Below, piece after piece: positions 23,987-53,706 of a stretch of DNA of 64,000 nt; the first letter of the stretch is position 1; the number at the start of each line of letters is the position of its first letter. The notes beneath the pieces were generated by a model. The model was given only the letters and a program-made list of their open reading frames with translations, was not told the origin of the DNA and did not search any database. The position numbers were made by a program, and so were the translations under genes. This DNA comes from Flavobacteriales bacterium (GTDB lineage: Bacteria; Bacteroidota; Bacteroidia; Palsa-965), in contig JBEIPA010000003.1 in NCBI GenBank assembly GCA_040377305.1, positions 96,001 through 160,000 of the forward strand, written 5' to 3'.

Positions 23987-24016
23987 CTCCCGTCTCCTGT
24001 CTGTCGTCTGTCGACT
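23987..24016. repeat. Degenerate 7-nt tandem array abutting the siaC stop
   Basis: ctcccgt ctcctgt ctgtcgt ctgtcga cta. Confidence 0.6.
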
Positions 24017-24395
24017 ACTCAGCAACCTCAACCATCTTGAACGGAATATTGATGATCGCCTGGTAATCTTCACCAGCTTCCAACATATCCTCGTCGTCTT
24101 GTTCGTAATACCAATTGATCACAATTGCAGATCCGCCTTTGTGAATTGCTTCGAGTTTCTTGAACACATCAAGAATGCATTTCGAAGAGCTCGTGTTGAA
24201 ATACTCCAACTGAATGTTCACGTTAGTATTCGCTTGCGGCTTCGAAGCATATTTTTCAAGATGCTCAACCAAAGGCTTATAAAACTCAATAGAGTTCTCA
24301 GGAATTGATCTGCCACGGATTTCAAGATGTCCGCTTGCCATGTCAAAACTGATTGTTGGTGTCTTTGGTGTTCCTTCGATTACGATGCGTTCCAT
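24015..24395 (-). CDS. siaC: SiaC-family regulatory phosphoprotein (DUF1987)
   Basis: TPKTP; GRSIPEN..EFY.P; LEYFNTSSSK phospho-Thr motif; INWYYEQDDEDMLEAGED. Confidence 0.92.
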   Translation of the reverse strand: MERIVIEGTPKTPTISFDMASGHLEIRGRSIPENSIEFYKPLVEHLEKYASKPQANTNVNIQLEYFNTSSSKCILDVFKKLEAIHKGGSAIVINWYYEQDDEDMLEAGEDYQAIINIPFKMVEVAE

Positions 24396-24414
24396 AGTAG
24401 TATGGTGTTGTGTG

Positions 24415-24984
24415 TTACTGTGCGATTTTAATATTTAAGCTGAAAAAAGAATAGACGTCATCAACCGGCATGAAGTGATAATTCAACTTCTGTCCTGTCT
24501 TGCGCGCGATATCGATCATACCGAGACCGCCACCGCCTTTTTCAGACATTTCCCCGTTATTAAGAACAGCCTTGTAGTAATCTTTCAACTCTTCTTTTGT
24601 GAGCTTGTTGATTTCGTCAAGACGATTCTTCAGACCGTTTACATTCCCTGTAAGAATGTAGTTGCCTGTAATGATATTGTACTGGTTGTCTAGCTTACCA
24701 ATCATGAAAATTGCAGAACGGATTTGTTCCCCTTCAGGACCATTAGCGTTTCCGTTCAAAGTTTTAGGAATTTCGTCCATGTGATGGTAAAGGTTCTGTA
24801 AACACTCTACCAATACATTGTAAACTTTCTTCTTGATTTTGGGCTCCTCCTGCATAGTGTCCAACTTGGACTCCATGATCTGGAGAATAGACGTCAACAA
24901 CTCGGACGTGATGTCGCCCTTAAATGAGAGCATAATGTTATTACGCTCCATTTTATCATAAAAGTCGTAGATGTCGACCATCAT
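24415..24984 (-). CDS. siaB: SiaB-family protein kinase (DUF6272, GHKL-like)
   Basis: LSFKG; VECLQNLYHH; LKDYYK; SEKGGGGLGMIDIARKTG; directly upstream of siaC. Confidence 0.9.
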   Translation of the reverse strand: MMVDIYDFYDKMERNNIMLSFKGDITSELLTSILQIMESKLDTMQEEPKIKKKVYNVLVECLQNLYHHMDEIPKTLNGNANGPEGEQIRSAIFMIGKLDNQYNIITGNYILTGNVNGLKNRLDEINKLTKEELKDYYKAVLNNGEMSEKGGGGLGMIDIARKTGQKLNYHFMPVDDVYSFFSLNIKIAQ

Positions 24985-25015
24985 AACCTTAAAGGCTGTG
25001 TGCTGTTGATTTCAA

Positions 25016-25123: not shown

Positions 25124-25142
25124 TACCTTAAGACCGACGCGT

Positions 25143-25961
25143 TTATTGCATCGTGAACTCGAATGTATTCCCTTCGATCATGATCGTACCACGGTTGTCG
25201 CAGGTACCATTACCGAAATCTACTGTACGGGTCGCTTTCCCGTCCGGAACAAGCTCTACAGTACCCTGGGTAATCCAGGTACAGCTCATGTCGCGGATGA
25301 TTGGCGATGTAACAGTTGAAGTGAAGTGTAGGCCATTACGGTCAGTTCCTTCGTTAGTTCCTTCAATACGGATTACCTGGTTAGCAGCAGAATTGCCTAC
25401 ACCGGAGATCCATGTAATGGTCTTATTGGTGTTCCAGTCGATCTCCCACGGAGTAGCTCCAGCTTTGCTGCAGTGGCCGTCATTGAGAACCATGTTAAAG
25501 GAGTTATTCGCACCGCGGGTAATGGTTGTTGTTCCTGTGAAGTTGATAGCTCCAACGTAGAAACTGTCGAGTGTAACTGTCATTACACAACCAACCGAAT
25601 CCCAAGGACGATCCATCGCAACCAGCATACGTCCTTTACGAACTTTGCCATCGACAGAATCTGTACATCCTGTTGAACCGTAATCTATCGTCATAACCAA
25701 AGGAAACTGGTTTGGCGTATTAACGGAAATAGTAGGACATGATTGAACCGATGGGCCACCTGGTCCCCAACGATGAACGCCCGGCTCATCAATAGAAATC
25801 TTGTTTACGGTAGGAAGAACGCGGAGAAACTCCCCTTCGCACAAGCTGTTATCAGTTGCAGAAGTGGTTTCAGTGTCAGCGACATCATCTTTTTTGCATC
25901 CAACATATACGAAGGATGATAAACAGAACAAAAATGCAGCGGATAGAGCAATGCGATTCAT
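25143..25961 (-). CDS. Hypothetical beta-rich lipoprotein
   Basis: Lipobox YVGC-KKDD; TIDYGSTGCTD..DGKVRKG; VDFGNGTCDN. Confidence 0.8.
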   Translation of the reverse strand: MNRIALSAAFLFCLSSFVYVGCKKDDVADTETTSATDNSLCEGEFLRVLPTVNKISIDEPGVHRWGPGGPSVQSCPTISVNTPNQFPLVMTIDYGSTGCTDSVDGKVRKGRMLVAMDRPWDSVGCVMTVTLDSFYVGAINFTGTTTITRGANNSFNMVLNDGHCSKAGATPWEIDWNTNKTITWISGVGNSAANQVIRIEGTNEGTDRNGLHFTSTVTSPIIRDMSCTWITQGTVELVPDGKATRTVDFGNGTCDNRGTIMIEGNTFEFTMQ

Positions 25962-26264
25962 GGAGTTATGTTTGATTTGGTTGTAGGACGTTTACCAGGT
26001 CCGTGGGTTCTTATTTGTACTATGTTCGACGCACTTTGATGACTGAGGTTTAAGCCGTTTGTCATTCCGAGCGCAGCCGGCGTGCAACAAATATAGTTTT
26101 TTGACTGAAAAAGCGTCAAATAGCTATGCTGAATCTTACGCGTGCATTCCTCAAAGGTTTCCACGATAGAGGCGGTTTTTCCAACATTGGCGGGAATTCC
26201 AAAGTGACAGTCGTAAATCCTAAAGTAAGCTGAACCTGAGTGGAGCGCCCTGAACATCGGATAA

Positions 26265-29200
26265 CTAGATTCTGATGCCTACAACCAAAACATCGTCAAC
26301 CTGAGCATACGTGTCTTTCCAGCCGTCAAATGCCTGTTCGAGTCTCGCAGCCTGATCCGTCAAGGATAGACCTTCAATTTCGCGTAGCAGTTCAAGGAGA
26401 TGCTTCACCATGAACTTCTTGCCGCGTGGACCTCCAAACTGATCAGCATATCCATCCGAGAACATGTAAAGCATGTCACCAGGTTCGAGAATGACGGTGT
26501 GTAGCGAGTATTCATTCACGCGTTCAGTGAGATTGCCGCCAATCGGGAATCGGTCGCTGTCAATTTTGGTGAGCACACCTTTACGTATAAGAACGAGTGG
26601 ACGTAAAGCTCCGGCAAATTTAAGTTCGCGTGAACCATCGGTGAATACGCAGATAGCAATGTCCATTCCATCGCGCGTGTCTTCTTCACCGTGCTGACCT
26701 TGCTTGAGTGCAGCCATCACCCCTTTATTAAGACGGTTCAGAATTTCTTCCGGAGATGTAATTCCTTTCTCGAGCACGATCTGGTTGAGAAGGTTGTGAC
26801 CAATTACACTCATCAGCGCACCAGGAACACCGTGGCCTGTACAATCGGCACACACCATGATTTTCTTTCCGTCTTTCTCTGCGAACCAATAGAAGTCGCC
26901 CGACACAATGTCTTTCGGGCGATAGAAAACAAAACTCTGTGGCAGGTGACGATAAATAAAATCAAGTTCGGGAAGAACCGCTCCTTGAATCCGTTTCGCG
27001 TACTGAATACTTGCTGTAATGTCTGCGTTCTTTTGTGCAAGCTCGTGCGTTCGTTCAGCAACTTTAGCTTCGAGTATTCTGTTCTCTTTCTTGATCGCAC
27101 GCGTTCTGTATCGTGTGAATCCGATTACACCGCCGATTACAGTTAGCACACAAATAGAGTAGAACCAGGTCGTCTTCCACCAAGGTGGTTGCACTTCTAT
27201 GCGTATGGAAATGCCTTCTTCGTTCCAATTTCCATTACTGTCCGCTCCCCGGATACGAAGCGTGTATTTGCCTCCCGGTAAGTTGGTGTAACTGATAAAA
27301 CGATTGGTTGTAACTGGCGACCAATCGTCATCGAATCCTTCGAGTTTGTATTGGTACATGTTCTTCTCCGGATCCACAAAGTCAAGAACGGATGCTTCGA
27401 AGCTGAAGTAATTTTCACGCCATGTTACGCTGATAAATCGTTTGGCTGTAATGGCAGAATCGAGCACAATCTCCGTTCCGAATCGCTTATAAGAAGTCAC
27501 AAATACGGGCGGAACTGAAGAACTTTTTCCCAGTCGTTTTGTGTCGATAATGTTCAGTCCTTTTTGCCCGCCGAAATAAAGAATCCCTTGCTTATTCCGG
27601 AAGTAGGCCCCTTGGTTGAACTCTTCAGGCTGAACGCCCGCGGCCGGACCATAATTGACAAACTGTTTTTCTGTGCCGGTAACATTCGCTTTGAAGCGGG
27701 TCAATCCTTTGTTGTGGCTCAACCACAGATAGCCTTCATTGTCGGGCAGAATCGCATAAATATTATCGCTGGGCAATCCGTTACGTTCATAATAGGTGGT
27801 GAATCCTTTGCCTGATTTATCGAGCAGGTCTAAGCCGTTCGCGGTACCAATCCACACGTTTCCCAATGCGTCTTCTGCAACGCAATATGTACGATCGTTA
27901 GAAAGTGAAGTCTGATCACTCTCATTGTGTTGATACTTCGTAAGCGCGCCCTTTCGTTCACGTTTCATTACACCACCATCGCGTGTGCAAATCCAAAGCG
28001 CTCCTTGTTTGTCGAAGTACAAATTGAAAATCACATCGCTCGTGAAACCGGAATTTTCCGAATTGTATTGTGTCAACGAATCCGTTTTCGGGTCGAGGTT
28101 GTACAATCCACCTCCAAAAGTTCCAAACCAGATCGTTTTGTCAACGGGATCTTCTTTGATGCAAAGAATGGTGCCATTTTCCAGACCGAAATCAGTAGAA
28201 TAGGTCTTCACTTTTCCGTCTGGCGACTTCCGATTTAATCCTTCTCCGTACGTGCCCACCCAAATAGTTCCGTCGGTGGCTTCTGTAACACTTAGAACTG
28301 AATTGCTGACAGAAGTAGACAATTCAGGATGTTGAGCGTACTCATCTGTTTTCGGATTAAATGTGGTCAAGCCTCCTCCATCTGTTCCGATCCAGATTAC
28401 TCCCGTGTGATCTTCCATGACACAGAAAATTCCGCTGCTCATGAGTGTGTTATTTTCCACACCAGGTCGCTCTGAGCGACGAACATGGGAGATCGTTGAT
28501 GTAGAACGGAAGTACACGCTTATTCCGCGTCCACTTGTTCCGCACCACATATTTCCGCTTCGGTCCCGAAAAACACATTTCGGTTGATCCGAAGCAAACG
28601 CGTAAGGATCGCGATCATTGGGAGAGTAATGCTGTATCTGTTCACTACCGGGATTCATGATGTCGAGACTGATATCGAAAATCGCGAGCCACAAATCACC
28701 TTTCTCGTCGTACGTCATATCAAACACCCGTGCTTCTGCAATGGAGTTCGACTTTTCAGCCGGATTAACGACACGATCAAATTTGTGCGAGGAAAAATTG
28801 AATACCTGCATTCCGCCACCATCTGTTCCAACCCACAAGGTATTTTCGTCGCGATATGCGAGCGAGCGCACCTGATTACACTGTCCGCGACGACGCACAT
28901 CATCTGATACTACTTTCGGATACAGTTTTGCAATCTCATCATCGGTCAACGTATAGTTCGTGAAACGTCGTGTTGCAGGATCCAGCATACACAACCCGTT
29001 GCCGTAAGTCCCGATCCAGAGATTTCCTTTTTTGTCTTCATAGAGGTCAAAAACCCGATTGCCTGCAATGGAAAACGGATCATTCGCATTATTCGTGAAA
29101 CGCGTAAACTTTTTCGTTTGCCGGTCAAACAAATTCAGACCATCATCAGTGCCAATCCACAAATTACCTTTCGCATCTTCCATGATCACTCGCACAGAGT

Positions 29201-29603
29201 TACTGCTGATCGTAGAAGCGTCTGAATCGTTGTACGTATAATGCGTGAAGTTATTCTTCACCGGATCATACATATCGAGTCCGCCTCCTGTCATTCCAAG
29301 CCAAATCATCCCATCTTTCGATTCAAACATGGTGTAGATGAAATTGTTTGCGAGTGAATTCGCATCCTGAGGGTCGCGCTTGAAAATCTTGAACGTATAT
29401 CCGTCGTATCGGTTCAAACCTTCCTGTGTACCGAACCACATGAAGCCCTGCTGATCCTGCATGATGCAGTTCACTACGGTTTGAGATAGTCCCTGTTCAA
29501 CCGAGATGTGCGAGAACTTATAATCTTGTGCACACAGTTGGGTCGCGATCGTAATAACTATCGCACTGTATAGCACACGCAGAAAACTGGTTGATCTCGC
29601 CAT
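26265..29603 (-). CDS. Receptor Ser/Thr phosphatase: Reg_prop propellers + Y_Y_Y + TM + SpoIIE (PP2C), SiaA-like
   Basis: Propeller repeats; ISYTNLPGGKYTLRIRG; PKDIVSGDFYW; ADCTGHGVPGA; DGMDI; SDGYADQFGG; QVDDVLVVG. Confidence 0.93.
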   Translation of the reverse strand: MARSTSFLRVLYSAIVITIATQLCAQDYKFSHISVEQGLSQTVVNCIMQDQQGFMWFGTQEGLNRYDGYTFKIFKRDPQDANSLANNFIYTMFESKDGMIWLGMTGGGLDMYDPVKNNFTHYTYNDSDASTISSNSVRVIMEDAKGNLWIGTDDGLNLFDRQTKKFTRFTNNANDPFSIAGNRVFDLYEDKKGNLWIGTYGNGLCMLDPATRRFTNYTLTDDEIAKLYPKVVSDDVRRRGQCNQVRSLAYRDENTLWVGTDGGGMQVFNFSSHKFDRVVNPAEKSNSIAEARVFDMTYDEKGDLWLAIFDISLDIMNPGSEQIQHYSPNDRDPYAFASDQPKCVFRDRSGNMWCGTSGRGISVYFRSTSTISHVRRSERPGVENNTLMSSGIFCVMEDHTGVIWIGTDGGGLTTFNPKTDEYAQHPELSTSVSNSVLSVTEATDGTIWVGTYGEGLNRKSPDGKVKTYSTDFGLENGTILCIKEDPVDKTIWFGTFGGGLYNLDPKTDSLTQYNSENSGFTSDVIFNLYFDKQGALWICTRDGGVMKRERKGALTKYQHNESDQTSLSNDRTYCVAEDALGNVWIGTANGLDLLDKSGKGFTTYYERNGLPSDNIYAILPDNEGYLWLSHNKGLTRFKANVTGTEKQFVNYGPAAGVQPEEFNQGAYFRNKQGILYFGGQKGLNIIDTKRLGKSSSVPPVFVTSYKRFGTEIVLDSAITAKRFISVTWRENYFSFEASVLDFVDPEKNMYQYKLEGFDDDWSPVTTNRFISYTNLPGGKYTLRIRGADSNGNWNEEGISIRIEVQPPWWKTTWFYSICVLTVIGGVIGFTRYRTRAIKKENRILEAKVAERTHELAQKNADITASIQYAKRIQGAVLPELDFIYRHLPQSFVFYRPKDIVSGDFYWFAEKDGKKIMVCADCTGHGVPGALMSVIGHNLLNQIVLEKGITSPEEILNRLNKGVMAALKQGQHGEEDTRDGMDIAICVFTDGSRELKFAGALRPLVLIRKGVLTKIDSDRFPIGGNLTERVNEYSLHTVILEPGDMLYMFSDGYADQFGGPRGKKFMVKHLLELLREIEGLSLTDQAARLEQAFDGWKDTYAQVDDVLVVGIRI

Positions 29604-34806: not shown

Positions 34807-37800
34807 ATGGTTAGAATAAACTACTTCGCCGCGCTCATTTCTTTATTCGTTTCGGTCTCTTTGTTCGCACAACAAGGTGTTCACGGTCCACGCACTGTAA
34901 ACGCAGCGAATACCATCGTCAACGAGTATACTTCCCTAACGGCAAGTGTTGCATCAGGATCAACCTCGATCACTGTGGCGAACAGTACACTCAATGCCAA
35001 TGGACGTTTCGCAACGGCACTTCAACCTGGAGATTTGATCATGATTTATCAGGTACAAGGCGTGTTCTTTCTACACGGTGGATTTGTCGGCCCCTCGGAT
35101 ACAACGTGGGGAAAGATTCCGAACCCGTGGGATTATCAGCAATGCGGGTTGTATGAGTTTGCTCAGGTAAGTTCTGTCCCGAACGCTACAACAATCAACG
35201 TTGATTGCGGATTGATCAATTCTTACAACCATGATCTCGTACCAGCTGTCCCTTTTAATGCATTGGAAAAGGTAATTGTTGTTCGCGTGCCGAGATATAC
35301 TTCGCTTACAGTTAACGCTGGCGGAGTGCTCACCTGTGACGACTGGAATGGCACAACGGGCGGCATATTAGCCGTGGAAGTGCAGGGAACCACTACTATA
35401 AACGCGGGTGGTATTATTGATGCGACCGGTAAAGGTTTTCGTGGTGGATCACTGGTAGGAGACAATGTCACAGCGTTTGGGGTTAACACAACCTATTCAA
35501 TGAATAATTCACTGGGCGCAGAGAAAGGCGAGGGCGTTGCTGGCTATCAGAGCGAACTTGACGTTTTTGGTGGACGGTATTGCCGTGCACCGGCAGTGAA
35601 TGGTGGAGGAGGCGGAGATGGGCATAATGCAGGAGGTGGCGGAGGAGCTAATGCACCGAACTCCACCAGTGGCGCTGCCATCTGGAGTGGCAATGGAATT
35701 CCGGATCAATCAGTTGGAGGATGGACAACCGCATGGTCAATTGAACCACCGGCGGGTACAATGAACCTTCGCACAACTGCAAATTCAGCAGGCGGCGGTC
35801 GCGGAGGATATTCTTTTTCTGGATCAAATCAGAATGCGGCTGCAGTTCCTCCTGGGAATGCGGCATGGGGTGGAGACGCAAGAAATCATCAGGCGACCGG
35901 ACTGGGCGGGCGACCATTGAGCAACATGAATGGCCGTGTGTATTTTGGTGGAGGTGGAGGAGCTGGCGATCAGAATCAATCAGGTGGGGGTGTAGGGGGT
36001 GATGGAGGTGGTTTAATTTACATGATGTGTTTCGGTGCTGTAAACGGTAGTGGAACTATAGTCTCGAACGGTGGCAATGGCGCCAATGGACAAGGCGGAA
36101 CCGGAGTGATAACTGGAATCGATGCCGGAGGTGGTGGCGGTGCCGGTGGGTCAATTCTTATTAACGCAATAGGAGGAGTCGCAAACACAATTACGGTTAC
36201 TACGAATGGTGGTAATGGAGGAAATCAGGTAATCAACCTGCCATTCAGCACCAATGAAGGGGAAGGTCCAGGAGGCGGTGGCGGTGGTGGATATATTGCA
36301 GTATCGTCCGGTGCACCCACCCGAAATTCTAATGGCGGAAACAACGGTACAACGAATTCCGCCGGTGTTACCGAATTCATTCCGAACGGCGCAACTCGCG
36401 GTTGCCCAGGTACGAATAACGCCCTCGTTCTTAATTACGATATTACCTTAACGAATCAAACTATTTGTGCTGGACAGTCGGTTACAATTACACCCGTTAT
36501 CACGGGTACACCGCCTTTCGGTTATGTACTCAACTATTACAATGCTTCAACTGGTGGTGTTCCATTTGCTTCCGGAACTAGCTACACTACGCCAGCGCTA
36601 GCAGTTGGTACATACACGTATTGGGTTGGTACTTGTGGTGGTTTCTGGAGAGAATCTGTTACGATCACAGTGGTTGGTGCACCAACTGTTACTTCAAGTG
36701 CAACAACGAATCCGATTTGCAGCGGACAGTCTACAACGCTCACAGCGGGTGGAACCGCTACTACTTACGTATGGAATCCTGGAAATATTGCTGGCACTTC
36801 TGTCAGTGTAAGCCCAACGACGACAACAACGTACACAGTTACCGGAACATTAATGCCGGGCGGATGTACAAATACATCGGTGATTACAGTTACCGTTAAT
36901 CCAACTCCAACCGTGACTGCAACTGCTTCTACGGTTACAATTTGCAACGGACAGTCTGTAACACTTACTGGGGGCGGCGCCACGTCATACGTTTGGAATC
37001 CGGGTAACATTTCAGGAAGTCCAATTAGTGTTTCTCCAACTGGAAATACAACTTACACTGTAACCGGAACAAGCTTAGGCTGTAGTAGCACTGCACAAGT
37101 TGCAATTACAGTGAATCCTACTCCAACAGTAACCGCATCAGCGGGCACAAATCCTATTTGCGCTGGTAACAGTACAACACTTACAGGTGGTGGAGCATCG
37201 ACTTACGTATGGAATCCTGGAAACCTCCCAGGAAGTCCGATAAGTGTTTCTCCTTCCGGTACACAAACGTATACGGTTACAGGAACAGCGGCGAACGGTT
37301 GTACAAACACCGGCCAGATAACAGTTACAGTTACACCTACACCTACTGTTACTGCATCAGCTTCAACGCTTACAATTTGTAATGGCGGATCAACAACACT
37401 CACCGGTGGAGGCGCAACGTCTTACGTATGGAATCCAGGAAACATTTCCGGGAGTCCAATCAGTGTTTCTCCAACAGGAAATACAACTTACACAGTTACC
37501 GGAACAACCAGTGGATGCAGCGGAACTGCACAAGTAGCAATCACTGTCAATCCAACTCCGACGGTTACATCAACTGCCGGAACTAATCCGATTTGCGCAG
37601 GCGCTTCTACAACGCTTACAGGTAATGGTGCAACTTCCTATGTCTGGAATCCGGGTTCATTACCAGGCTCGCCTATTTCAGTTACACCAGCAACTACCAC
37701 TACATACACAGTTACAGGTACAGGTGCAAATGGATGTACGTCCAACTCGCAAATCACAGTTACCGTAAATCCATTACCTACAGTAACATCTACTGCAGGA

Positions 37801-40800
37801 ACAAATCCAATTTGTGTTGGCGGTTCCACAACTTTAACCGGTGGTGGCGCATCAACGTATGTTTGGAATCCGGGAAGTATTCCGGGAAGTCCAATTAACG
37901 TTGCTCCAGGTTCAACTCAAACATACACGGTAACCGGAACTGATGGTAACGGTTGTACGAACTCATCACAGATTACAGTTACTGTTGTTCCTACACCTAC
38001 GGTAACCGCAAGTGCGAATACAAATCCAATTTGTGCAGGATCACCAACTACTTTAACTGCAGTTGGTGCGACGACTTACAACTGGATGCCGGGTAACCTG
38101 AGCGGAAATTCAATAACCGTTTCACCGGGTGCTACAACATCTTATACTGTTACGGGAACGAGCGGAACCTGTACTTCTTCTTTTGTAATTACCGTTACGG
38201 TGAATCCAACGCCGGTTGTTTCATCCTCTGTGGGAACAAATCCAATTTGTGCAGGTGCTTCAACTTCACTGAGTGCAAGTGGTGCTGTAACCTACGTTTG
38301 GAATCCGGGTTCATTACCGGGCTCACCGGTTTCAGTAACTCCTGCGTTAACTACAACTTATACCGTTACAGGAACAGACGCAAACGGATGTACTTCTACA
38401 TCACAGATTACAGTCACTGTAAATCCAGTGCCAACAGTTACCGCTACACCACCATCTGCCACAATTTGCGCGGGATCAAGTGTAACGATTAACATGACTG
38501 GTGCTGCTTCGTACAGCTGGCTGCCGGGACCACTTGCCGGATCTTCGCAAACATTGAGTCCCGCTTCAACAACCACGTATACAATTACGGGTACTGGTGC
38601 GAATGGTTGTACAGACACTGCGCAAGTAATGGTTACAGTTAATACGTTACCAACGGTTACGGCAACTTCAGCTCCGACAACAATTTGTGCGGGTCAATCT
38701 GCAACACTTTCAGCTGGCGGTGCTTCAACGTATGAGTGGAATCCGGGTTCTTTGCCAGGTTCTTCAGTGAGCGTTACTCCTGCTTCAACGACTACTTACA
38801 CATTGACGGGAACAGACGCGAATGGATGTTCAGACACGGCACAAGTTACCGTAATTGTGAATCCACTTCCGGTTCCAACGGTAGCGGCAACGCCGAACAC
38901 ACTTTGTTTGGGCGATACTGTCCAACTTTCTGCGGGAGGTGGATCTGTATACACATGGAACGGCGGAACACTTTCGAATGCATCCGGTGCAAATCAAATT
39001 GACACACCTTCGGTTACTACAACATATTCTGTAGTGGTGACCGATGGAAATGGTTGTGTTGATTCAACTACGGTAGCTGTAACTGTGAATCCGCTTCCGA
39101 CTGCTGATGCAGGATTGGATCAAACAGTTTGCGCGGGTACTACGATCACTATTACAGGTAACGGTGGAATCACTTACACCTGGAACGGCGGTGCGCTCAC
39201 AAATGCAAACGGATCATCACAATCTGATACGCCTCCACTCACTACCGATTATGAATTGACTGTAAGTGATGTGAACGGATGTACTGATCGTGATACAGTG
39301 ACGATTAACGTGAATGCACTTCCTATCGTTGGTGCCGGACCCGATGTTCAGATTTGCATCAACAGTTCAACACTACTCAATGGTAGCGGAGGAACATCTT
39401 ACGTTTGGACACCTGCAGGCAGCTTAGATGATGATTCAATTGCATCGCCAACTGCGTCCCCAGTTGTGACAACGACGTACGTTGTTGTTGGGACAGATAA
39501 CAATGGATGTTCAGATGATGACACAGTTGTTGTAACAATCGGCAATAACCTCACGGTGTTTGCGAGCAACGACATCACCATTTGTCCTGGCGATACTGCG
39601 GTACTAACTATTGTTGGTGGAACAATCTGGAGCTGGTCACCAGCGGCAACACTTGATCAGCCGGCAAATGATAGCACGAATGCATTCCCGACATCAACCA
39701 CAACATACACGGTGAACGTGCAGGATGCGAATGGTTGTCTTGGATTGGATTCAGTAACGGTATTTATCAACTCAAGTGTTGGCTTATCGGTTACAGGCGC
39801 TGCAACTATTTGCATCGGTCAATCGACATCGATCAATGCAACACCAAGTGGTGGAACAGGCCCATACACATACACGTGGGATAACAGCTTAACGGGCGCG
39901 GGTCCTCACATTGTTTCTCCAACGGTAACTACAACATACAATGTATTTGTGACCGATTCAATCGGATGTAATTCACAAACGCAGAGTGTTGTCGTAACAG
40001 TAAACCCAGCGTTGACTTTGAATACGATCACTCCTGTATCAGCCTGCGTAGGCGGAACGGCGAACCTAACAGCATCTGGTAGTGGTGGCGACAACAACTT
40101 AACGTACACATGGTATCCGGGAGCACTGACCGGAGCATCGCAAACAGTTACTGTGAATGCAACACAAACGTACACGGTGATTCTTACTGATGGATGCGGA
40201 ACTCCTGCAGATACCCAAGTGGTAACTGTAACCGCAAATCAACCTCCAACGGTTTCCTTGACTTCTGATGTGAACACAGGTTGTGCTCAGTTGTGTGTAA
40301 ACTTTACAGGAACTTCTTCCGGATCTTGTGCGGCTTCAGCCTGGGATTTCGGTGATGGAGGTAACGCTTCTACAGCAAATGCAACCTACTGTTACAACGT
40401 AGCAGGTGTGTACGACGTAATTTATAGCTGTACAGATGCGAATGGTTGCGTAGGATTTGATACGGTTGTAGGAATGATAACAGTAACTCCAGATCCAACA
40501 GCCGCAATGTCCATACCGAACGTAACAGTTCAGTTGAATGGTGGACAAGCAACGGTGTGTGTTACTGATCAATCAACAGGAGCAACTTCCTGGAGTTACC
40601 AGTTGAACGAGCCTAATGGAACCCAGTCGAGCACATTGCAGAATCCGTGCTTCACAGTAACAGATACCGGAGCGTATTCAATTTGGTTGACCACACAAAA
40701 TGCAAATGGTTGTGTGGATTACGACTCGCTTGTATTCTTTGTAGATTGGCCATGCACCGATCTGTTCGTACCAAGCGCATTCTCGCCAAACGGCGATGGA

Positions 40801-41028
40801 ATGAACGATACGTTCTACGTTTACGGAAATTGTATCTCCTTCATGCAACTGGAAATTTATAGTCGCTGGGGCGAGCAAGTGTTCATCTCAACAACTCCTG
40901 CGAATGGTTGGGACGGAACATGGCGAGGGAAAGATTGTGAGGCGGCCATATTCACTTACGTCTTACGAGGGCAGATGGACGATGGAACACCTCTCGAAAT
41001 GCAAGGAAACATTACACTCACCCGATAA
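34807..41028 (+). CDS. Large T9SS type-B cargo adhesin: Gly-rich head, about 16 disulfide-containing Ig-like repeats, 2 PKD-like domains, gliding-motility (CHU_C) CTD
   Basis: Signal peptide; poly-Gly N-region; ~73-aa repeats [28 protein letters not shown]...[11 protein letters not shown]; WDFGDG; [18 protein letters not shown]...IYSRWG...WDG...GNITLTR. Confidence 0.93.
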
Positions 41029-44364: not shown

Positions 44365-44472
44365 GGTATATTAAAATTAGCCCACTGCTAACGCCTATTC
44401 CGACAGCAGCGCTCTAACTTCTCAAGTATAACGTGTTGAAAATCTGAACATTGTATTTTGCCCAAAGATTCG

Positions 44473-44480
44473 TATTTTTG
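44473..44480 (+). promoter_or_regulatory. Putative -7 promoter element (TATTTTTG) for the yfiR-like operon
   Basis: TAnnTTTG match upstream of ATG 44549. Confidence 0.45.
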
Positions 44481-44548: not shown

Positions 44549-45082
44549 ATGCTTAAACGTATCAGCGTTTTATTCATTCTGTTTGTGTTGCCTGTAATGA
44601 TGGGTTTTCAAACCACTCCTACAGACACTAACGCTCGCGTGAAATCCGTTTTCATTTACAACTTCACGCGTTATGTTGAATGGCCGACTGATTACCAGAG
44701 CGGAAATTTCATCATCAACATGTACGGAACCAACGCTGCAATGCTCGCTGAGTTGAACACGATGGCGAAAACAAAAACAGTGGGTACACAGAAAATCGAA
44801 ATCAGAAACACGACTACACTTGATGGTATCGGAAAGTGCAATATCCTTTATGTAACTCCGGATGTAACGACCCCGATATCAGATATCGTCGCAAAAATAA
44901 AAGGGAAAAGTACGTTGCTCGTTACGGAGAAAAAGGGATTTGCTACACAAGGAGCCGCGATCAATTTCGTGGTGGTAGACAACAGACAAAAATTTGAATT
45001 GAACAAGGCGAATGCCGAGAAATACAGTCTTAAAGTTAGTGCGCAGTTAGTTACACTTTCAATACCAGTTGAAGACAAATAA
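44549..45082 (+). CDS. YfiR/HmsC-family (DUF4154) periplasmic regulator
   Basis: Signal peptide; VKSVFIYNFTRYVEWP; CNILYV; LLVTE; GAAINF; KFELN; LKVSAQLVTL. Confidence 0.88.
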   Translation: MLKRISVLFILFVLPVMMGFQTTPTDTNARVKSVFIYNFTRYVEWPTDYQSGNFIINMYGTNAAMLAELNTMAKTKTVGTQKIEIRNTTTLDGIGKCNILYVTPDVTTPISDIVAKIKGKSTLLVTEKKGFATQGAAINFVVVDNRQKFELNKANAEKYSLKVSAQLVTLSIPVEDK

Positions 45083-45086
45083 AACG

Positions 45087-46004
45087 ATGAAAAACAACGT
45101 AAGAAAAAGCGCAATGCTGTTGCTGCTGGGAGTTTTACTCTCGGGAGCTGCCGGACTGCAGGCGCAATCTTACTATCATCATGACCGTGCGTGGGAATTT
45201 GTGTTGTCGGGTCAGGTTGATAGTGCCAGAAAGGAGATTGATCTCCAGATGAAGGAGCCAGGTTCGGAGCGAGATCCGGAGTGCTGGTATACCTACGGCA
45301 TTGTGTACAATGAGATGTACAAGAAGTATGAAAATACGAATGTACAATCTAACTATCGTGTATTGGCTTTCAGCGCTTTCAAAACGGTGTTGGCAATGGA
45401 TACGGTTTCGGCCCGTGTACAGACCACTCGCGATTACATGAAGTATTATGCAACCCGTTTCTACAACGATGCGGTTTCTACACTGGATACAACGAATCAT
45501 GCGCAGTCTGTATCGTGCTACCGTGCATATCGTGAAGCTGCGGTTCTTGGTGATCCGAAATTCGATATCAAAAAGAAGGATATTGAATTCTATCTGGCTC
45601 TTGCTTCAACGTATACTGTAATTTACAATGTTGACAAGAAGAAGAACGCTGCGTATTTCGACTCTACGAAAAATACGTACTCATATGTTCTTACGCTGGA
45701 TGCAAATAATTACTCAGCTAACTATAATCTGGGCGTTCTATATTGGAACAAAGGAGTGGATCTGATGTATGATATTGATTACGACGATAGTCTCGGGGTA
45801 ATTTTCGATGTGCAGGATCACTCGGTTGAGCTTTTCAAGCAATCACTTCCATTTGCAGAGAAGGCATACCTGATGGAGCCAAAGCGCGAAGAAACACTCA
45901 TCGTACTTTCCGGAATTTATTACAGCCTTAACGAGTTCGAGAAATCGGACAAGTACAAAGAGATGTTAGATAATTTGAGGAATCAACCGAAGAAACCTGA
46001 ATAA
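45087..46004 (+). CDS. Exported TPR-repeat protein
   Basis: Signal peptide; WYTYGIVY; ANYNLGVLYWNKG; SLPFAEKAY...LSGIYYSL. Confidence 0.8.
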   Translation: MKNNVRKSAMLLLLGVLLSGAAGLQAQSYYHHDRAWEFVLSGQVDSARKEIDLQMKEPGSERDPECWYTYGIVYNEMYKKYENTNVQSNYRVLAFSAFKTVLAMDTVSARVQTTRDYMKYYATRFYNDAVSTLDTTNHAQSVSCYRAYREAAVLGDPKFDIKKKDIEFYLALASTYTVIYNVDKKKNAAYFDSTKNTYSYVLTLDANNYSANYNLGVLYWNKGVDLMYDIDYDDSLGVIFDVQDHSVELFKQSLPFAEKAYLMEPKREETLIVLSGIYYSLNEFEKSDKYKEMLDNLRNQPKKPE

Positions 46005-46038
46005 TCGTAACACAGATTAAAACGCACGCTGCCCGCTT

Positions 46039-47829
46039 ATGAATTTTCGCTTTTCGATTGGTGCAAAGATTCTCGTGGGCTTCGGCGTGCTCATTTTTCT
46101 CGTTACCATCGCATTTTTCCTCACGCTTTTTACCATTCGCGAGAGTCGTGAAATCAATGACACCATTGCCAAGCTTTACACACCTTCTGTAGATGCATTG
46201 CAGGAAATGCGACTCGTAATTACGCGGTCGAAAACCTACATGACTACCTGGGTAAACGTTCCGGGTCCATCGGAGGATAAGATTAAGGTGAAGAACCTCA
46301 TTGATTCCGAGTATCCTGAAGTGCGTAACCGCATCAACACACTTTCTGAAGGTTGGGATATTGCTGATCGCGATCAGATCAAGTATATCTTTTTGAAATG
46401 CGACACGCTTTGGATGATGGATCACCAGGTAATGGCCGATCTCAGCGCATTCGAAAGCTATGATGATCCTTCTATCGTATTCATGGCACGCCCACGTGTA
46501 CTCGATGAAGACGGAGACATTACGGACGCTACACGACAGATCAGCGACTTGCTAGACTTTCTGATTCAGAAGCAATATGATGCCGCTTCGAAAAAGCGGA
46601 TGGAAATGCTCGACTCTTTCCGTCAGCTGCAGATTGTGGTGGTGTTGCTGCTTGTAATCCTTCCGCTGGGAGGAATTTTCATTGCCTTGTTGACTGCACG
46701 AACAATTACAAAACCGGTCCGCAACCTCAAGAATACACTTCTTCAAATGGCGCGCGGTGTACTTCCGAAAAATAAAATTCCGAATCGTAATGATGAAGTA
46801 GGAGAGATGTCCGTTGCACTCAACAACCTTGTTGATGGTATGCGGTTAACCACTGAATTTGCGCGAGAGGTGGGTGCGAATAACTTCGATTCCTATTATA
46901 AGCCGCTTTCAGATGAAGATTCATTGGGGCATGCGCTTCTGAAAATGCGTTCCGATCTTCGGGAGAATGAACGTGTACTCGAAGCGAAAGTTATAGAACG
47001 TACAGAGGAAGTTGTTCGGCAGAAAGAGGAAATCGAAATCCAGAATCGCAAGCTGGAGATTCTATACAAGCATATCACCGATAGTATCCGCTACGCTAAG
47101 CGCTTGCAGGATGCAATTCTTCCAACCCAGGCTACGATTGAGCGTTTGCTTCCTGAATCGTTTGTGTTGTTCAAACCAAAAGACATTGTATCCGGCGATT
47201 TCTATTGGTTGTTTGAAACACCAAAACGAATTTTCATTGCAGTTGTAGATTGTACCGGTCACGGTGTGCCAGGCGCATTCATGAGCATTGTGGCGCACAA
47301 CATGCTCAATCAGATCGTAAAAGAAAATCCGGAGCTTAATGCGGCTGAATTCCTGAATGAACTGAATTCACTTGCGGGACAAACAATCAATCAGCACTCT
47401 GAGGATTCAGCTGTTCGCGACGGAATGGACATGACGCTTTGTATTCTCGACAAGGGCACAAACATGGTTGATATTGCCGGAGCGAATAATCCGCTTTACA
47501 TTTTCCGCAATGAAAATCTGCAGGAATTGCGTGCTGATAAATTGCCGATTGGTTACCTCGATGATCGTCCTTCGAAGAAGTTCACCAACAACCGAATTCA
47601 ACTCGAGAAAGGTGATACGTTGTATCTGTTTTCCGATGGTTATGCCGATCAGTTTGGTGGACCGAAAGGCAAAAAATTCATGGTTGGGCAATTCCGTTCT
47701 TTCCTCAGCCAAATTCACAAAGAATCAATGAAAGATCAGTATCGTACACTCGATCTTACCATTGAGCAGTGGCGTGGAAACCTCGAGCAGGTCGATGACA
47801 TTCTCGTTGTCGGATTCCGAATTTCTTAG
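46039..47829 (+). CDS. Membrane phosphatase: 4-helix-bundle sensor + HAMP + SpoIIE (PP2C)
   Basis: Two TMs flank a helical periplasmic domain; HAMP TITKPV...DEVGEMSVALNNL; PKDIVSGDFYW; VDCTGHGVPGA; SDGYADQFGG; QVDDILVVG. Confidence 0.92.
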   Translation: MNFRFSIGAKILVGFGVLIFLVTIAFFLTLFTIRESREINDTIAKLYTPSVDALQEMRLVITRSKTYMTTWVNVPGPSEDKIKVKNLIDSEYPEVRNRINTLSEGWDIADRDQIKYIFLKCDTLWMMDHQVMADLSAFESYDDPSIVFMARPRVLDEDGDITDATRQISDLLDFLIQKQYDAASKKRMEMLDSFRQLQIVVVLLLVILPLGGIFIALLTARTITKPVRNLKNTLLQMARGVLPKNKIPNRNDEVGEMSVALNNLVDGMRLTTEFAREVGANNFDSYYKPLSDEDSLGHALLKMRSDLRENERVLEAKVIERTEEVVRQKEEIEIQNRKLEILYKHITDSIRYAKRLQDAILPTQATIERLLPESFVLFKPKDIVSGDFYWLFETPKRIFIAVVDCTGHGVPGAFMSIVAHNMLNQIVKENPELNAAEFLNELNSLAGQTINQHSEDSAVRDGMDMTLCILDKGTNMVDIAGANNPLYIFRNENLQELRADKLPIGYLDDRPSKKFTNNRIQLEKGDTLYLFSDGYADQFGGPKGKKFMVGQFRSFLSQIHKESMKDQYRTLDLTIEQWRGNLEQVDDILVVGFRIS

Positions 47830-50568: not shown

Positions 50569-50619
50569 TTGTCCGCAACAGGAATGAAAATTGCTTTAAC
50601 CCCCAATACGCTGAATAAA

Positions 50620-53600
50620 ATGAAAAAACTATTTACTCTTCTGCTTTTAGGCTTTTGTACGCTACAAGTATTCGCTCAGGCACCTGAAGGCATAAACTAT
50701 CAGGCTGTTGCGCGTGATGTTGCAGGAACAGAAATGCCGAACACGCCGGTCGATGTTCAGGTGCAAATTCTGAATTCCGCACTCGCAGTTATTTATCAGG
50801 AAGATCATCTCGATACAACCAACGCATTTGGATTGTTCAACCTGGTGATCGGACAAGGACAAAATCCTACGTCTTCATTTTCCAACATAAATTGGGCCAG
50901 TGGTCCGTTTTATTTGCGCATTTACATTGATGCAAATAACAGCGGGTATGTAAACATGGGCTACACCCAGTTATGGTCTGTGCCGTATGCACTTTACGCA
51001 AAAGAATCCGCGAATGGACCTCAAGGACTACCCGGAACAAATTGCTGGGATTTGGATGGAGATGGTGTGAATGATCCTGCAGAAGATGTAAACAACGACT
51101 CGCAGTGGAATGCACTCGATTGTCAAGGAGATAGTGGCGCAGTTGGACCGCAAGGACCACAAGGTGCGCAAGGTATTCAGGGTGTACAAGGAACACAGGG
51201 TGCTCAAGGAATACAAGGTGTACAAGGAGCAACAGGAGCAACGGGCCCGAACGGACTCGCATGTTGGGATCTCAACGGAAATGGAACTGGCGATGTTGGT
51301 GAAGACATTAACACGGATGGATTGTGGAACTCACTTGATTGTGCTGGTGCAGTAGGTGCAACTGGCGCTCAAGGTCCAACAGGTGCTCAAGGTCCAAGTG
51401 GAATAGCAGGAACAAACGGTGCGACTGGAGCAACCGGTCCTTCAGGAACAAACGGAGCGAATGGAGCAACAGGAGCTACTGGTCCTTCAGGAACAAACGG
51501 AACGAATGGAGCAACAGGAGCTACTGGTCCTTCAGGAACGAACGGAACGAATGGTGCAACGGGAGCAACTGGTCCTTCGGGAACAAACGGCACCAATGGA
51601 GCAACAGGAGCAACTGGCCCATCAGGAACGAACGGAACAAATGGTGCAACGGGAGCAACTGGCCCAACGGGTTCAAACGGAACGAATGGCGCAACGGGAG
51701 CGACTGGTCCATCAGGTACAAACGGAACGAATGGAGCAACAGGTGCCACGGGTCCTTCAGGTACAAATGGAACGAATGGTGCAACGGGTCCAACCGGTGC
51801 AACGGGACCGACTGGAACTTTTGCAATGGCAGGAGTATTTGGACAGACGCTTTATTATAACGCAGGATGGATTGCGACGAGCAATTTGTACAACGATGGT
51901 ATTCGTATTGGAATTGGTACCTCTTCTCCGAATGTAAACGGTCAGCTTGATGTGAATGGTGATGCATTTGTAAATGGACATCGCATTGGAAGAGGGGCCG
52001 GACTTTCTCAGTTCAATACGGTGCTTGGTACAAATGCATTGGGAAGTACGAATACGGGAACAGATAATACTGCAATTGGATTCAACACACTTCGCTTTAA
52101 CTCTACCGGTGGGCAAAACACGGCCATCGGTGCGTCGGCCCTTAATGCGGTTGTGATCGGATCTTCAAACACCGCAGTAGGATATGCATCTTTTGGTAAC
52201 AACACTAGTTCGTTCAACACGGGGTTAGGGGCTTCTTCCGGTGAACAAAACACAACAGGGAACAATAACGTTGCAATAGGAAACAGAGCGCTCTGGCTAA
52301 ATCAAACGGGTAACCAAAACGTTGCTGTAGGAAAAGACGCCTTAGTAAACACCACAGGATCACAAAACGTGGGCATTGGCTTCCAGGCGAATATTACCAA
52401 CACAACAGGTACAAACAACACTGCTATTGGTTATGCCGCAAGCGTTACGGTAGCTGGACTTACCAATGCAACTGCGATTGGTTCAGGTGCTCAAGTCTCT
52501 GCAAGTAATTCACTTGTTTTGGGCAGCGGGGCCAATGTTGGCATTGGAAACAGTGCACCCGCATTCAAACTGGATGTAACAGGTAACGTTCGTTTCACAG
52601 GTACAGCACAAATCGGAGTGTATACATTACCAAGTACTGATGGTATTGCCAATGCTGTTTTGAAAACAAACGGACTTGGAGTTGTATCATGGCAACCAGA
52701 CAATACCGGCACCGGAACAGTAACCGGAAGTGGTACGCTTAATTTTCTTCCGAAGTGGAGTTCTGCTACAGGACTCACCAATTCGATGGTGTATGATAAT
52801 GGGACAAGTGTTGGTATTGGAAATACTGCGCCAAGTGCCACTCTTTCGGTTGGAGTAAATAAGTTTCTGGTTAACGGAGCAGATGGCGATCTCAGTTTCA
52901 CAGACCCTAACGGATCAATTATTTTCCCAGCGAGTTCAGCAGGTAATCCGGCAATGATTTCCATGTTCGCAAGTGGTTCTGGAAATCCAGCTCGTATGGT
53001 GCTCGGACACAGCCCCGCTTTCCCTGACTGGGGCTTGATGTACGATGATGGCTTTGATAGATTTCATTTCACCAACAATGGAGGAGCGGGAGCTGCTCTT
53101 ACTGTTGATATTGGTTTTAGTGCAGTCGGAATAAACAATACTTCTCCAGCATATGCACTTGATGTAAATGGTACGACCAACACAGCAGGATTCATTATGC
53201 AGCCTGGTGCAAGTAGTGGTAAGGTCATGACATCAGATGCTACCGGTGTGGGAAGCTGGGAGTTTCCATTAACACCAGCAAAATTCGGTGAGCTTGCTTC
53301 TGTTTATCCGACAAACAATTCAAGTCAGTATAGTTATACCCCAGTGGTATTAACAATTACTCCGCAAAGCAGTGGAGTAGTTGTGTTAAACGGTACAGTA
53401 GGCTATAACTACAATTCTTCGTTTACAAGCCAGGTTGATTTTGGTTATTACGTTGCAACAACGCCTGCAGTGCCTAATTCCTCCACACCTCTTTCATCAT
53501 CAACGACTACCTCTGGCTATGCTGCAGCGGAAGGCACGGGCTTTACCAGATCCGTTGTCCCTCTGGTTTGGTCGTTCACAGTAGTTGCAGGGCAAACGTA

Positions 53601-53706
53601 TTACATCTATGTTGGAATGCTAGATGGTGGGCTATCTACTCAGACTTCCGGAAATATGGTGGCTCCAAAAGTTACCGCAACACTTCATTCATCGGCAGGC
53701 TTATAA
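50620..53706 (+). CDS. Collagen-like fibre protein with YadA/tail-fibre-like repeats; no T9SS CTD visible
   Basis: Signal peptide; N-domain QAPEGINYQAVARD...SVPYALYA; two Gly-X-Y tracts; NTAIG/NVAVG beta-roll repeats; VGIG...LDVNG repeats. Confidence 0.88.
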   Translation: MKKLFTLLLLGFCTLQVFAQAPEGINYQAVARDVAGTEMPNTPVDVQVQILNSALAVIYQEDHLDTTNAFGLFNLVIGQGQNPTSSFSNINWASGPFYLRIYIDANNSGYVNMGYTQLWSVPYALYAKESANGPQGLPGTNCWDLDGDGVNDPAEDVNNDSQWNALDCQGDSGAVGPQGPQGAQGIQGVQGTQGAQGIQGVQGATGATGPNGLACWDLNGNGTGDVGEDINTDGLWNSLDCAGAVGATGAQGPTGAQGPSGIAGTNGATGATGPSGTNGANGATGATGPSGTNGTNGATGATGPSGTNGTNGATGATGPSGTNGTNGATGATGPSGTNGTNGATGATGPTGSNGTNGATGATGPSGTNGTNGATGATGPSGTNGTNGATGPTGATGPTGTFAMAGVFGQTLYYNAGWIATSNLYNDGIRIGIGTSSPNVNGQLDVNGDAFVNGHRIGRGAGLSQFNTVLGTNALGSTNTGTDNTAIGFNTLRFNSTGGQNTAIGASALNAVVIGSSNTAVGYASFGNNTSSFNTGLGASSGEQNTTGNNNVAIGNRALWLNQTGNQNVAVGKDALVNTTGSQNVGIGFQANITNTTGTNNTAIGYAASVTVAGLTNATAIGSGAQVSASNSLVLGSGANVGIGNSAPAFKLDVTGNVRFTGTAQIGVYTLPSTDGIANAVLKTNGLGVVSWQPDNTGTGTVTGSGTLNFLPKWSSATGLTNSMVYDNGTSVGIGNTAPSATLSVGVNKFLVNGADGDLSFTDPNGSIIFPASSAGNPAMISMFASGSGNPARMVLGHSPAFPDWGLMYDDGFDRFHFTNNGGAGAALTVDIGFSAVGINNTSPAYALDVNGTTNTAGFIMQPGASSGKVMTSDATGVGSWEFPLTPAKFGELASVYPTNNSSQYSYTPVVLTITPQSSGVVVLNGTVGYNYNSSFTSQVDFGYYVATTPAVPNSSTPLSSSTTTSGYAAAEGTGFTRSVVPLVWSFTVVAGQTYYIYVGMLDGGLSTQTSGNMVAPKVTATLHSSAGL
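51418..51777 (+). repeat. 45-nt tandem coding repeat x8 (GATGATGPSGTNGTN)
   Basis: Eight consecutive 15-aa collagen units with synonymous codon variation. Confidence 0.9.

Follow-up and report, generated by a model that had tools for sequence, protein, structure and literature searches.

A stretch of 64,000 nucleotides from a Flavobacteriales bacterium of the Palsa-965 lineage (assembly GCA_040377305.1, contig JBEIPA010000003.1, positions 96,001 to 160,000; the whole stretch is called the window here) carries three consecutive genes for a YfiR-like protein, a protein built of tetratricopeptide repeats (TPR) and a membrane-bound sensor phosphatase. The linkage and the order of the three genes are conserved, and their products may form a partner switch. 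The YfiR-like protein would act as a clamp on the sensor, at the tip of its four-helix bundle. The sensor would pass the signal on through its HAMP repeats to a SiaA-type phosphatase, whose likely substrate is SiaC. As a decoy, the TPR protein would draw YfiR away from the sensor by offering, at the tip of a long hairpin, a similar helix start to the same YfiR groove, in the manner of the YfiBNR partner switch. An N-terminal tag of TonB-dependent receptors would play that part in sister operons. By analogy with YfiN, bound YfiR would fix one state of the sensor and its release would flip the phosphatase activity, in either direction. We give the model as a whole, with its correlated steps allowed for, about an even chance. 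As the signal, a periplasmic protein or peptide that binds in the TPR groove is most likely. The three genes are:

44549..45082, forward strand: yfiR-like (DUF4154) gene, 177 amino acids; PF13689 at 115.9 bits against a cut-off of 24.9
45087..46004, forward strand: TPR solenoid gene, 305 amino acids; sub-cut-off Pfam TPR matches only, and an AlphaFold model
46039..47829, forward strand: sensor phosphatase gene, 596 amino acids, predicted inner membrane protein; HAMP at residues 218-267 and SpoIIE at 395-594

An earlier reading of the window, made from its letters alone (the sequence-only reading), had described the locus as a YfiBNR-like input wired to a phosphatase instead of a diguanylate cyclase. 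Its gene order of YfiR, TPR and a HAMP-PP2C protein with two transmembrane (TM) segments is borne out by all three open reading frames. Its remark that the operon has neither GGDEF nor an OmpA-type YfiB agrees with a domain scan of the three products, in which neither a GGDEF nor an OmpA domain came up; a gene at 55418 that has an OmpA domain encodes a separate protein of a type IX secretion system (T9SS) locus, outside the operon. The intergenic gaps are 4 nucleotides between yfiR and the TPR gene and 34 between the TPR and sensor genes.

Conservation of the three-gene unit

Sixty related genomes were searched with each of the three proteins; the counts, taken from coordinates, exclude one genome, G012. 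A single contig carries the whole trio in 27 of 33 genomes of the family and, outside the family, in 8 of 26. Contig ends split it in two of the remaining family genomes, and it was not found in the other four, which are 72-89% complete. An independent scan used sensor residues 1-330 alone as the query and kept the best 80 of at least 107 relatives; their outputs are SpoIIE in 60 and GAF in 16, and four are cut. After SpoIIE loci with less than 1600 nucleotides of upstream DNA had been dropped (n = 9), 51 GTDB loci were left. A six-frame count found yfiR and the TPR gene directly 5' of the sensor, in the same order and on the same strand, in 51/51 of these phosphatase-type loci and in 4/4 of the cut ones. 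Metagenome loci with a phosphatase-type sensor and comparable upstream DNA hold the trio in 12 of 12 cases, two of which duplicate GTDB or relative loci. The neighbourhood check proposed in the sequence-only reading thus came out in its favour, at 51/51 GTDB and 12/12 metagenome loci. A clade that had seemed to be without yfiR was rejected as such: the gene is in place in 5/5 genomes. One genome weighs against a fixed unit, G040, where yfiR and the TPR gene are separated from the sensor gene, whose vicinity holds another yfiR.

Carriers are chiefly uncultured Bacteroidia, but the cultured Cryomorpha ignava (L112) is also among them. An even sample of the phylum gave a match to the TPR family in only 4 of 400 other genomes (E 1e-30; five candidates scored per genome). 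In the source genome, G000 (5.18 Mb, 99.99% complete), the yfiR-like gene is the only one for a DUF4154 protein.

At some trio loci the TPR gene is doubled in tandem, or its product is longer (~394 amino acids) and keeps internal repeats (L050:8035-9896 in G053, L080 and L089). A gene for a class III adenylate/guanylate cyclase lies 3' of the trio in some Flavobacteriales (L088 at 6725-10780, L091, L097, L135, L173 and L176); that of L088 encodes a propeller/Y_Y_Y sensor cyclase.

The YfiR-like protein and its predicted seat on the sensor

The YfiR-like protein is probably periplasmic, judging by its hydrophobic N-terminus. A profile of its family matches solved YfiR with E 6e-07; a single-sequence search of the PDB did not recover YfiR. 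The best-scoring model is NF053591 (TOL_0243 YfiR-like; 111.4 bits, E 3.7e-32, below the cut-off of 125), and the model of true YfiR, NF053586, gives 25.6 bits against a cut-off of 85. By these scores the protein is nearer to the TOL_0243 subfamily, whose genes normally stand between those of a TonB-dependent receptor and a kinase, than to true YfiR.

The mature protein has a single cysteine, C97, as the sequence-only reading had noted. Residues were mapped to Pseudomonas aeruginosa YfiR by profile alignment to the solved structure. C71, C145 and C152 correspond to N57, A132 and N139, and only C110 is retained, so that neither canonical disulfide is present. Across 86 orthologues, 27 have no cysteine, 47 have one and 12 have two at scattered positions. 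The C145-C152 disulfide is reported to be essential for folding of Pseudomonas YfiR (PMC4887326; this and most other published sources are cited for the available parts of their texts). Redox sensing is unlikely here because three of the four disulfide cysteines, this pair among them, are replaced. It was rejected as a mechanism, with both disulfides lost and 27/86 orthologues free of cysteine.

The sensor has two hydrophobic segments, around residues 11 and 199. Its parts are, in order, TM1, a four-helix-bundle periplasmic domain, TM2, HAMP, a HAMP-like repeat, a coiled coil and a SiaA-type PP2C; the second HAMP-like repeat is suggested by a sequence pattern. Two features of the periplasmic part matter for the interaction:

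46135..46632, forward strand: periplasmic four-helix bundle, sensor residues 33-198; structure model, no Pfam family
46459..46494, forward strand: predicted docking helix at the membrane-distal tip, sensor residues 141-152; Y141 (invariant), D143, P144 and F148

The model of the sensor head has a mean predicted local distance difference test score (pLDDT) of 89.9 and shows a four-helix bundle whose distal tip carries two additional short helices. DSSP places the helices at 7-73, 79-103, 108-134 and 160-223, a topology that runs from TM1-alpha1 to alpha4-TM2. The nearest structures are the HK9 sensor 3va9 (Z 15.6, root-mean-square deviation (rmsd) 2.2, 127 residues aligned), MCP2201 (Z 15.4) and LytSN (Z 15.3). 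Adeh_2942 is also among the closest folds (range Z 15.3-15.6, rmsd ~2), and the top seven rows are all sensor domains. A sequence search of the PDB with the head gave nothing under E 0.05 and a Foldseek search nothing under E 0.001, and the sensor has no match to CHASE8 or NF053592. The sensor is not a YfiN head because its periplasmic domain is a four-helix bundle. Of the circuit proposed earlier, the predicted YfiR-sensor contact and the intact PP2C stand, but the sensor is not a YfiN with a new tail.

The complex was modelled with ESMFold2 from paired alignments of our own, using two sensor copies and one YfiR. It scores 0.78, compared with 0.01 for the best of three controls, and one YfiR lies across the tips of the sensor dimer; the interaction check suggested by the sequence-only reading thus yields a predicted contact. 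The same mark is reached by 116/157 solved complexes and 2/215 mismatched pairs, though these figures apply to the present complex only approximately, given the alignments used and the two sensor copies. The runs share at least 93% of contacts, and the pLDDT of the partners is at least 89. In the model, a groove formed by YfiR helix 1 (residues 31-38), strand 146-149 and the C-terminal helix (169-171) receives P144 and F148 of the sensor. Sensor residues P144, V147 and F148 lie among YfiR residues 31/34/35/38, 146-149 and 170-171.

The predicted site falls on a familiar surface. In the profile alignment, the contacts Q147, F149 and L170 correspond to residues 160, 162 and 183 of P. aeruginosa YfiR, a patch proposed for YfiN binding (PMC3375315), and R41, E44, T75-T77, K162 and S164 correspond to S57, R60, Q88-N90, R175 and H177 of the YfiB site (PMC4887326). 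Overlap between the YfiN and YfiB sites on YfiR has been reported (PMC4655355). The DPSIVF sequence at the sensor tip is similar to the AAVVF motif of YfiN (PMC3375315). The tip motif is retained in all aligned sensors adjacent to yfiR and is degraded in 3/6 GAF sensors that have no adjacent yfiR.

Several points count against the docking. Among five genomes whose sensor has no adjacent yfiR, four (including G465, and two with a degraded tip) carry DUF4154 genes elsewhere. The interface is no more conserved than the rest of either protein (0.56 versus 0.55 in YfiR, 0.47 versus 0.45 in the sensor). The complex score may in part be a memory of solved look-alikes, namely YfiB-YfiR and XylFII on the LytS bundle. 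Inter-protein covariation over 82 paired rows (effective number of sequences ~48) was uninformative: no signal exceeded the cytoplasmic-domain controls, and none was found within YfiR either. On balance we are fairly confident of the modelled docking of YfiR on the sensor tip.

The same head occurs with other outputs. At GAF-output loci, yfiR is adjacent in 7/13 and a TPR gene in 0/13; the head is also found on hybrid kinases that follow a receptor-yfiR pair (L057, L058) and on phosphatases divergent from such a pair (L053, L054, L056). YfiR appears to follow this sensor head whatever the output, because yfiR adjoins it with GAF, hybrid-kinase and phosphatase tails. Eight loci have yfiR directly 5' of the same four-helix head joined to HAMP-GAF(-PAS) (L126, L131, L132, L136, L138, L146, L150 and L151); no catalytic domain was detected in these sensors, and often a NUDIX gene stands before and a dCache-HAMP-GAF-PAS gene after.

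In related genomes, yfiR-like paralogues mostly follow a TonB-dependent receptor gene and precede CHASE8/hybrid kinases or phosphatases. This arrangement recalls the TonB receptor/YfiR-like/histidine kinase trio (NF053590, NF053591, NF053592), to whose middle member the present protein gives its best score. That trio occurs in related genomes, at some loci with the same four-helix head (L053, L054, L056, L057, L058). The present unit differs from it in having a TPR protein for the receptor, no CHASE8, a phosphatase output and an NF053591 score below the cut-off of 125. Locus L065:7398-9317 (in G060) encodes a natural single-chain fusion of a YfiR-like domain and a SiaA-type phosphatase. In L063 and L064, two to three yfiR-like genes form an array together with one or two genes for TonB receptors, and this array converges with a REC gene and a propeller-SpoIIE gene.

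The TPR protein as a candidate decoy

The AlphaFold model of the TPR protein (pLDDT 92.6) is an all-helical TPR solenoid in which helices 209-228 and 236-263 form a long hairpin. Its leader ends in AQ and has no lipobox cysteine, and Q27 after the leader is near-invariant. The hydrophobic N-terminus and Q27 suggest an exported, soluble protein. Fold searches returned generic TPR matches only, and the ESM Atlas only unnamed clusters of Bacteroidota TPR proteins. The part of interest is:

45771..45815, forward strand: hairpin tip, TPR residues 229-243; family-specific acidic/aliphatic helix start, candidate YfiR-docking tag

The protein is a shortened paralogue, by ~120 residues in most cases, of a TPR protein of 380-450 amino acids (hhalign probability 99.4%, E 2.5e-21). 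The long gene follows gyrA in 18/19 loci with a match, and the TPR family is sizeable, with 419 representatives at E 1e-30. In G000 the exported 422-residue TPR gene right after gyrA (C21:9699-10967) has no NCBIfam family. The gyrA-linked protein is presumably the TprA family of Porphyromonas gingivalis, in which we take tprA to lie next to gyrA. The two TPR proteins are homologous end to end and have the same long C-terminal hairpin; the trio protein differs in that its hairpin tip is longer and acidic with an invariant aliphatic residue, and in that its gene lies between yfiR and the sensor. Position 236 is L, I, F, V or M in 86/86 trio proteins, compared with 3/18 gyrA-linked paralogues.

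A tag of the form S-L-E-E/Q-L is found in 11/14 TonB receptors of the sister operons. When a profile of these 11 tags was run over the TPR proteins, the hairpin tip ranked first in 40/86 trio members and within the top 3% in 81/86; on the gyrA-linked paralogues it ranked first in 0/18 and within the top 3% in 5/18. No TonB receptor of the tagged type occurs in any locus tabulated in the six-frame count or in G000. This resemblance of the hairpin tip to the tag of receptors that accompany other YfiR-like genes is suggestive of a YfiB-like decoy. Against such a role it must be said that the similarity is moderate (mean 9.6, compared with 33.4 for the tags themselves), that generic helix starts score too (sensor position 50 is first in 35/86), and that the sensor's docking helix itself matches the tag poorly (-10.6). 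The conserved aliphatic residues of the hairpin could, moreover, be packing residues. We rate the TPR protein as a competing decoy for YfiR at slightly short of an even chance.

The TPR protein might instead be a periplasmic chaperone or assembly factor drawn from the gyrA-linked family, without a switching role, the unit then consisting of YfiR and the sensor only. Its paralogy to a housekeeping-linked protein, its generic fold with no specific structural match and the existence of YfiR-sensor pairs without it (0/13 GAF-type loci) would fit such a role. However, the TPR gene is never lost from the 51/51 phosphatase-type loci, where it always stands between yfiR and the sensor; it remains with yfiR in G040, where the sensor has moved away; and the family-specific hairpin tip is absent from the paralogue. 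We regard the chaperone role as unlikely.

A different division of labour is known from XylFII-LytS (5xsd/5xsj) and GlnH-GlnX-PknG (PMC9769921), in which a periplasmic partner on a four-helix bundle controls a cytoplasmic phospho-enzyme. Here the partner is a single-lobe YfiR fold rather than a two-lobed binding protein as in XylFII-LytS, and the output is PP2C. By this example YfiR would stay docked as a small-molecule-binding lobe, and the TPR protein, rather than competing, would join the ternary complex as its scaffold or as another co-receptor. The sensor fold does match LytSN, the partner of a periplasmic binding protein; YfiR-like genes are paired with TonB importers in sister operons; the gene linkage is strictly 1:1:1; and canonical YfiR weakly binds vitamin B6 and Trp (PMC4887326). 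The residues of the B6/Trp pocket are, however, mostly unconserved in the profile mapping, the predicted sensor site overlaps the canonical YfiB site, which fits competition, and the TPR tip is like the receptor tag. Such a co-receptor complex seems to us somewhat unlikely.

Along with the decoy, a broader reading may be entertained, in which YfiR-fold proteins are universal adaptors whose one groove reads a short helix start grafted onto unrelated scaffolds. These would be CHASE8 or four-helix sensors on one side and YfiB, TonB-receptor tags or the TPR hairpin on the other. A Bacteroidota TPR decoy of gyrA-linked descent would then gate a SiaA-type phosphatase and join the SiaBC switch without cyclic di-GMP (c-di-GMP), some 50 phosphatases converging on few SiaC proteins. 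We put this forward tentatively, as doubtful rather than probable.

Phosphatase output, known systems and neighbouring genes

The output of the trio and its likely partners in the window are:

47044..47826, forward strand: SiaA-type PP2C domain; D387, D404, D533, D586 and D587 present
24015..24984, reverse strand: siaB (kinase) and siaC (threonine phosphoprotein), ~20 kb upstream and outside the operon

The nearest solved structure is SiaA, 6K4E (E 2.4e-37; the next match has E 4.6e-06). NF038263 gives 242.6 bits over residues 292-595, under its full-length cut-off of 700. D387, D404, D533, D586 and D587, presumably the metal ligands known from PPM phosphatases, are each invariant in 82/82 full-length sensors. 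The window siaB scores 165.8 bits with the SiaB family against a cut-off of 85; the window siaC scores 100.1 with the SiaC family, whose cut-off is 150, and 152.2 with Pfam SiaC, over its cut-off. This pair is likely the kinase and substrate for the trio phosphatase and for other SiaA-type phosphatases. SiaA and SiaB act on T68 of SiaC (10.1101/674879), and the Asn-Thr phosphosite is kept in all four SiaC of G000.

Further loci link the trio to SiaBC. siaB or siaC lies near the trio in 5/85 loci, which a quick tree resolves into three or more separate events; about 0.5 occurrences of siaB would be expected in the 616 kb of flank if there are a few siaB per 4 Mb, an estimate. The order yfiR-tpr-sensor-siaB-siaC-X is found in L080 and L089, siaBC or siaC lies directly upstream of the trio in L083 and L159, and in L044 it lies 3.5 kb upstream. 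X (L089:7865-8344, L080:7846-8397) has two TM segments, a coiled coil and no GGDEF. It carries an [IV]SDx[YL]Q-type motif like the I81-S82-D83-Y85-Q86 with which SiaD binds SiaC (PMC8457831), and matches the stalk of a SiaD model weakly (E 0.0044 and 0.027). Its relatives are fused to SiaC, REC or TPR domains, and it has no sequence match in the PDB. X is a candidate SiaC effector of Bacteroidota, possibly a SiaD-like SiaC-binding stalk without the cyclase.

In other respects the evidence runs the other way. A SiaD-like stalk was searched for in G000 and not found; 80/85 trio loci have no nearby siaB or siaC, and the siaBC of G000 is 20 kb off. R652 and F612 of SiaA, proposed to be important for SiaC (10.1101/674879), align with V585 and K545 here, and two STAS proteins of G000 are alternative substrates. 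The phosphatase encoded just upstream of the window siaBC carries the same replacements of R652 and F612. Weighing these points, we consider SiaC the probable substrate of the phosphatase.

With the same input, the phosphatase could also act on another protein, for instance on a STAS protein serving as anti-anti-sigma factor in a switch of the RsbV type. The two STAS matches, the differing equivalents of R652 and F612 and the number of ~51 paralogues for four SiaC would allow this. On the other side stand the closeness of SiaA, by far the nearest structure, the operons of siaB/siaC with the trio in separate lineages and the Asn-Thr site of all four SiaC. A divergent and apparently RsbU-like phosphatase (C44) is moreover available for the STAS proteins. 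A substrate other than SiaC is quite improbable in our view.

G000 has 52 SpoIIE-family, four SiaC, two SiaB and two STAS matches, and no GGDEF match was found anywhere in this 99.99% complete genome. With a local profile, 51 of the 52 SpoIIE-family phosphatases score as SiaA-like, with varied sensor heads. SiaB occurs in 34/34 family genomes (a tally that includes G012) and in 53/61 genomes overall, and GGDEF has a match in 2/61, one of them above the cut-off. A phosphatase output is the lineage norm because SiaB is so much more widespread than GGDEF. The earlier idea of a swap for the cyclase is right in that PP2C is present, but the 52 copies make it the lineage default, and variable outputs of the YfiR module have already been published (PMC3375315). 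In G000 this makes a many-to-few threonine-phosphorylation network, ~51 phosphatases against two SiaB and four SiaC, with no GGDEF. The window itself has, at 24015-29603 on the reverse strand, a siaABC-like locus without siaD. It consists of co-oriented genes for a propeller/Y_Y_Y-SpoIIE phosphatase, a 272-residue protein without a Pfam family (with a paralogue on C58), SiaB and SiaC.

The trio resembles SiaABCD of P. aeruginosa (10.1101/674879, PMC8457831; 6K4E) in its membrane HAMP-PP2C architecture and SiaA-type catalytic domain, in that its genome also encodes SiaB and SiaC, and in the operon order of some trio loci, though not of this one. It differs in having another periplasmic domain, which is served by a YfiR-like and a TPR protein as dedicated partners, in the lack of a SiaD cyclase, in the equivalents of R652 and F612 and in the ratio of ~51 such phosphatases per genome to two SiaB and four SiaC. 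With YfiBNR of P. aeruginosa and HmsCDE of Yersinia (PMC3375315, PMC4887326, PMC4655355) it shares a periplasmic DUF4154 regulator, a two-TM HAMP sensor and a three-gene layout with a third exported protein, as well as, by prediction, the same YfiR surface and an AAVVF-like docking helix. Unlike these systems, it has a four-helix bundle in place of PAS/CHASE8, PP2C in place of GGDEF, a soluble TPR protein in place of the OmpA lipoprotein YfiB, and neither YfiR disulfide. The trio works like YfiBNR at its input and like SiaA at its output, yet belongs to neither.

A core of YfiR and the PAS/HAMP part of YfiN with kinase, GGDEF-EAL, HPT and MCP outputs has been described (PMC3375315). Output swapping of YfiR modules is thus already published, and the receptor-YfiR-like-kinase trio is already catalogued in NCBIfam. 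The available text of PMC3375315 has no mention of the four-helix head, the PP2C output or the TPR partner, and the words SpoIIE, PP2C and phosphatase are absent from all eight of its supplementary files. The available text of PMC12088040 mentions neither YfiR nor SiaA. A literature search at listing level, with subscription journals and bioRxiv supplements outside its reach, did not find the trio in print.

How YfiR grips its sensor is structurally unsolved in PMC4655355 and PMC4887326. The predicted docking residues on a soluble four-helix domain, together with a soluble candidate decoy, make the partner switch testable with three small proteins. The YfiR module is tied neither to PAS/CHASE8 sensors nor to c-di-GMP, and the trio points to an unstudied SiaABC network of Bacteroidota without the SiaD cyclase. 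If the broader reading of YfiR as an adaptor is true, two Pseudomonas biofilm circuits are combined here, with the input taken from one, the SiaBC switch from the other and no part for c-di-GMP. The unit bears on neither medicine nor biotechnology.

The operon is divergent from an NlpC/P60 gene (43828-44364) and has CHU_C/PorP genes on either flank, as the sequence-only reading had stated when it placed it between T9SS cargo loci. The unit could accordingly be devoted to monitoring type IX secretion or the hydrolysis of the cell wall. CHU_C or PorP neighbours occur in 11/11 family loci and 8/36 GTDB loci, and the periplasmic TPR protein TprA of P. gingivalis binds the T9SS-related TapA and TapB (PMC4674972). 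The NlpC/P60 neighbour, however, is found in just 7/47 loci, and the neighbours at the most distant trio loci are unrelated. G000 has 55 CHU_C and 19 PorP genes, and 11.7% of its random 8-kb windows touch one, a rough background since the criteria are not identical. The NlpC/P60 and T9SS flanks are mostly family-local and no part of the unit, which makes a dedicated monitor very improbable. For the same reason the flanks say little in favour of envelope stress as the signal. The envelope-sensing circuit proposed earlier retains its dephosphorylating output, with an intact PP2C and SiaC as the likely substrate, but loses this argument for its input.

Upstream of the operon lies one further feature:

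44451..44480, forward strand: candidate housekeeping promoter (TTG, 19 nucleotides, TAnnTTTG), ~70 nucleotides 5' of yfiR

The TAnnTTTG element, which we take to be the housekeeping promoter consensus of Bacteroidota, matches at 44473-44480. It is found within ~200 nucleotides upstream of yfiR in 52/85 trio loci, inside the TPR gene in 3/85 and inside the sensor gene in 4/85, a comparison of non-coding with coding DNA and so an imperfect control. Over the window it is not enriched (26 found versus 41 expected), and a scan for sigma-70 promoters and terminators gave three sites of each, no excess over shuffled sequence.

Elsewhere in the window, 34807-41028 encodes a T9SS type-B cargo protein of 2073 amino acids with numerous Ig-like repeats and an N-terminal region rich in Gly, and 50569-53706 a protein of 1045 amino acids with collagen-like repeats. 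The product of 15298-18441, 1048 amino acids long, combines TerB-like, ABC ATPase and ABC-2 membrane domains.

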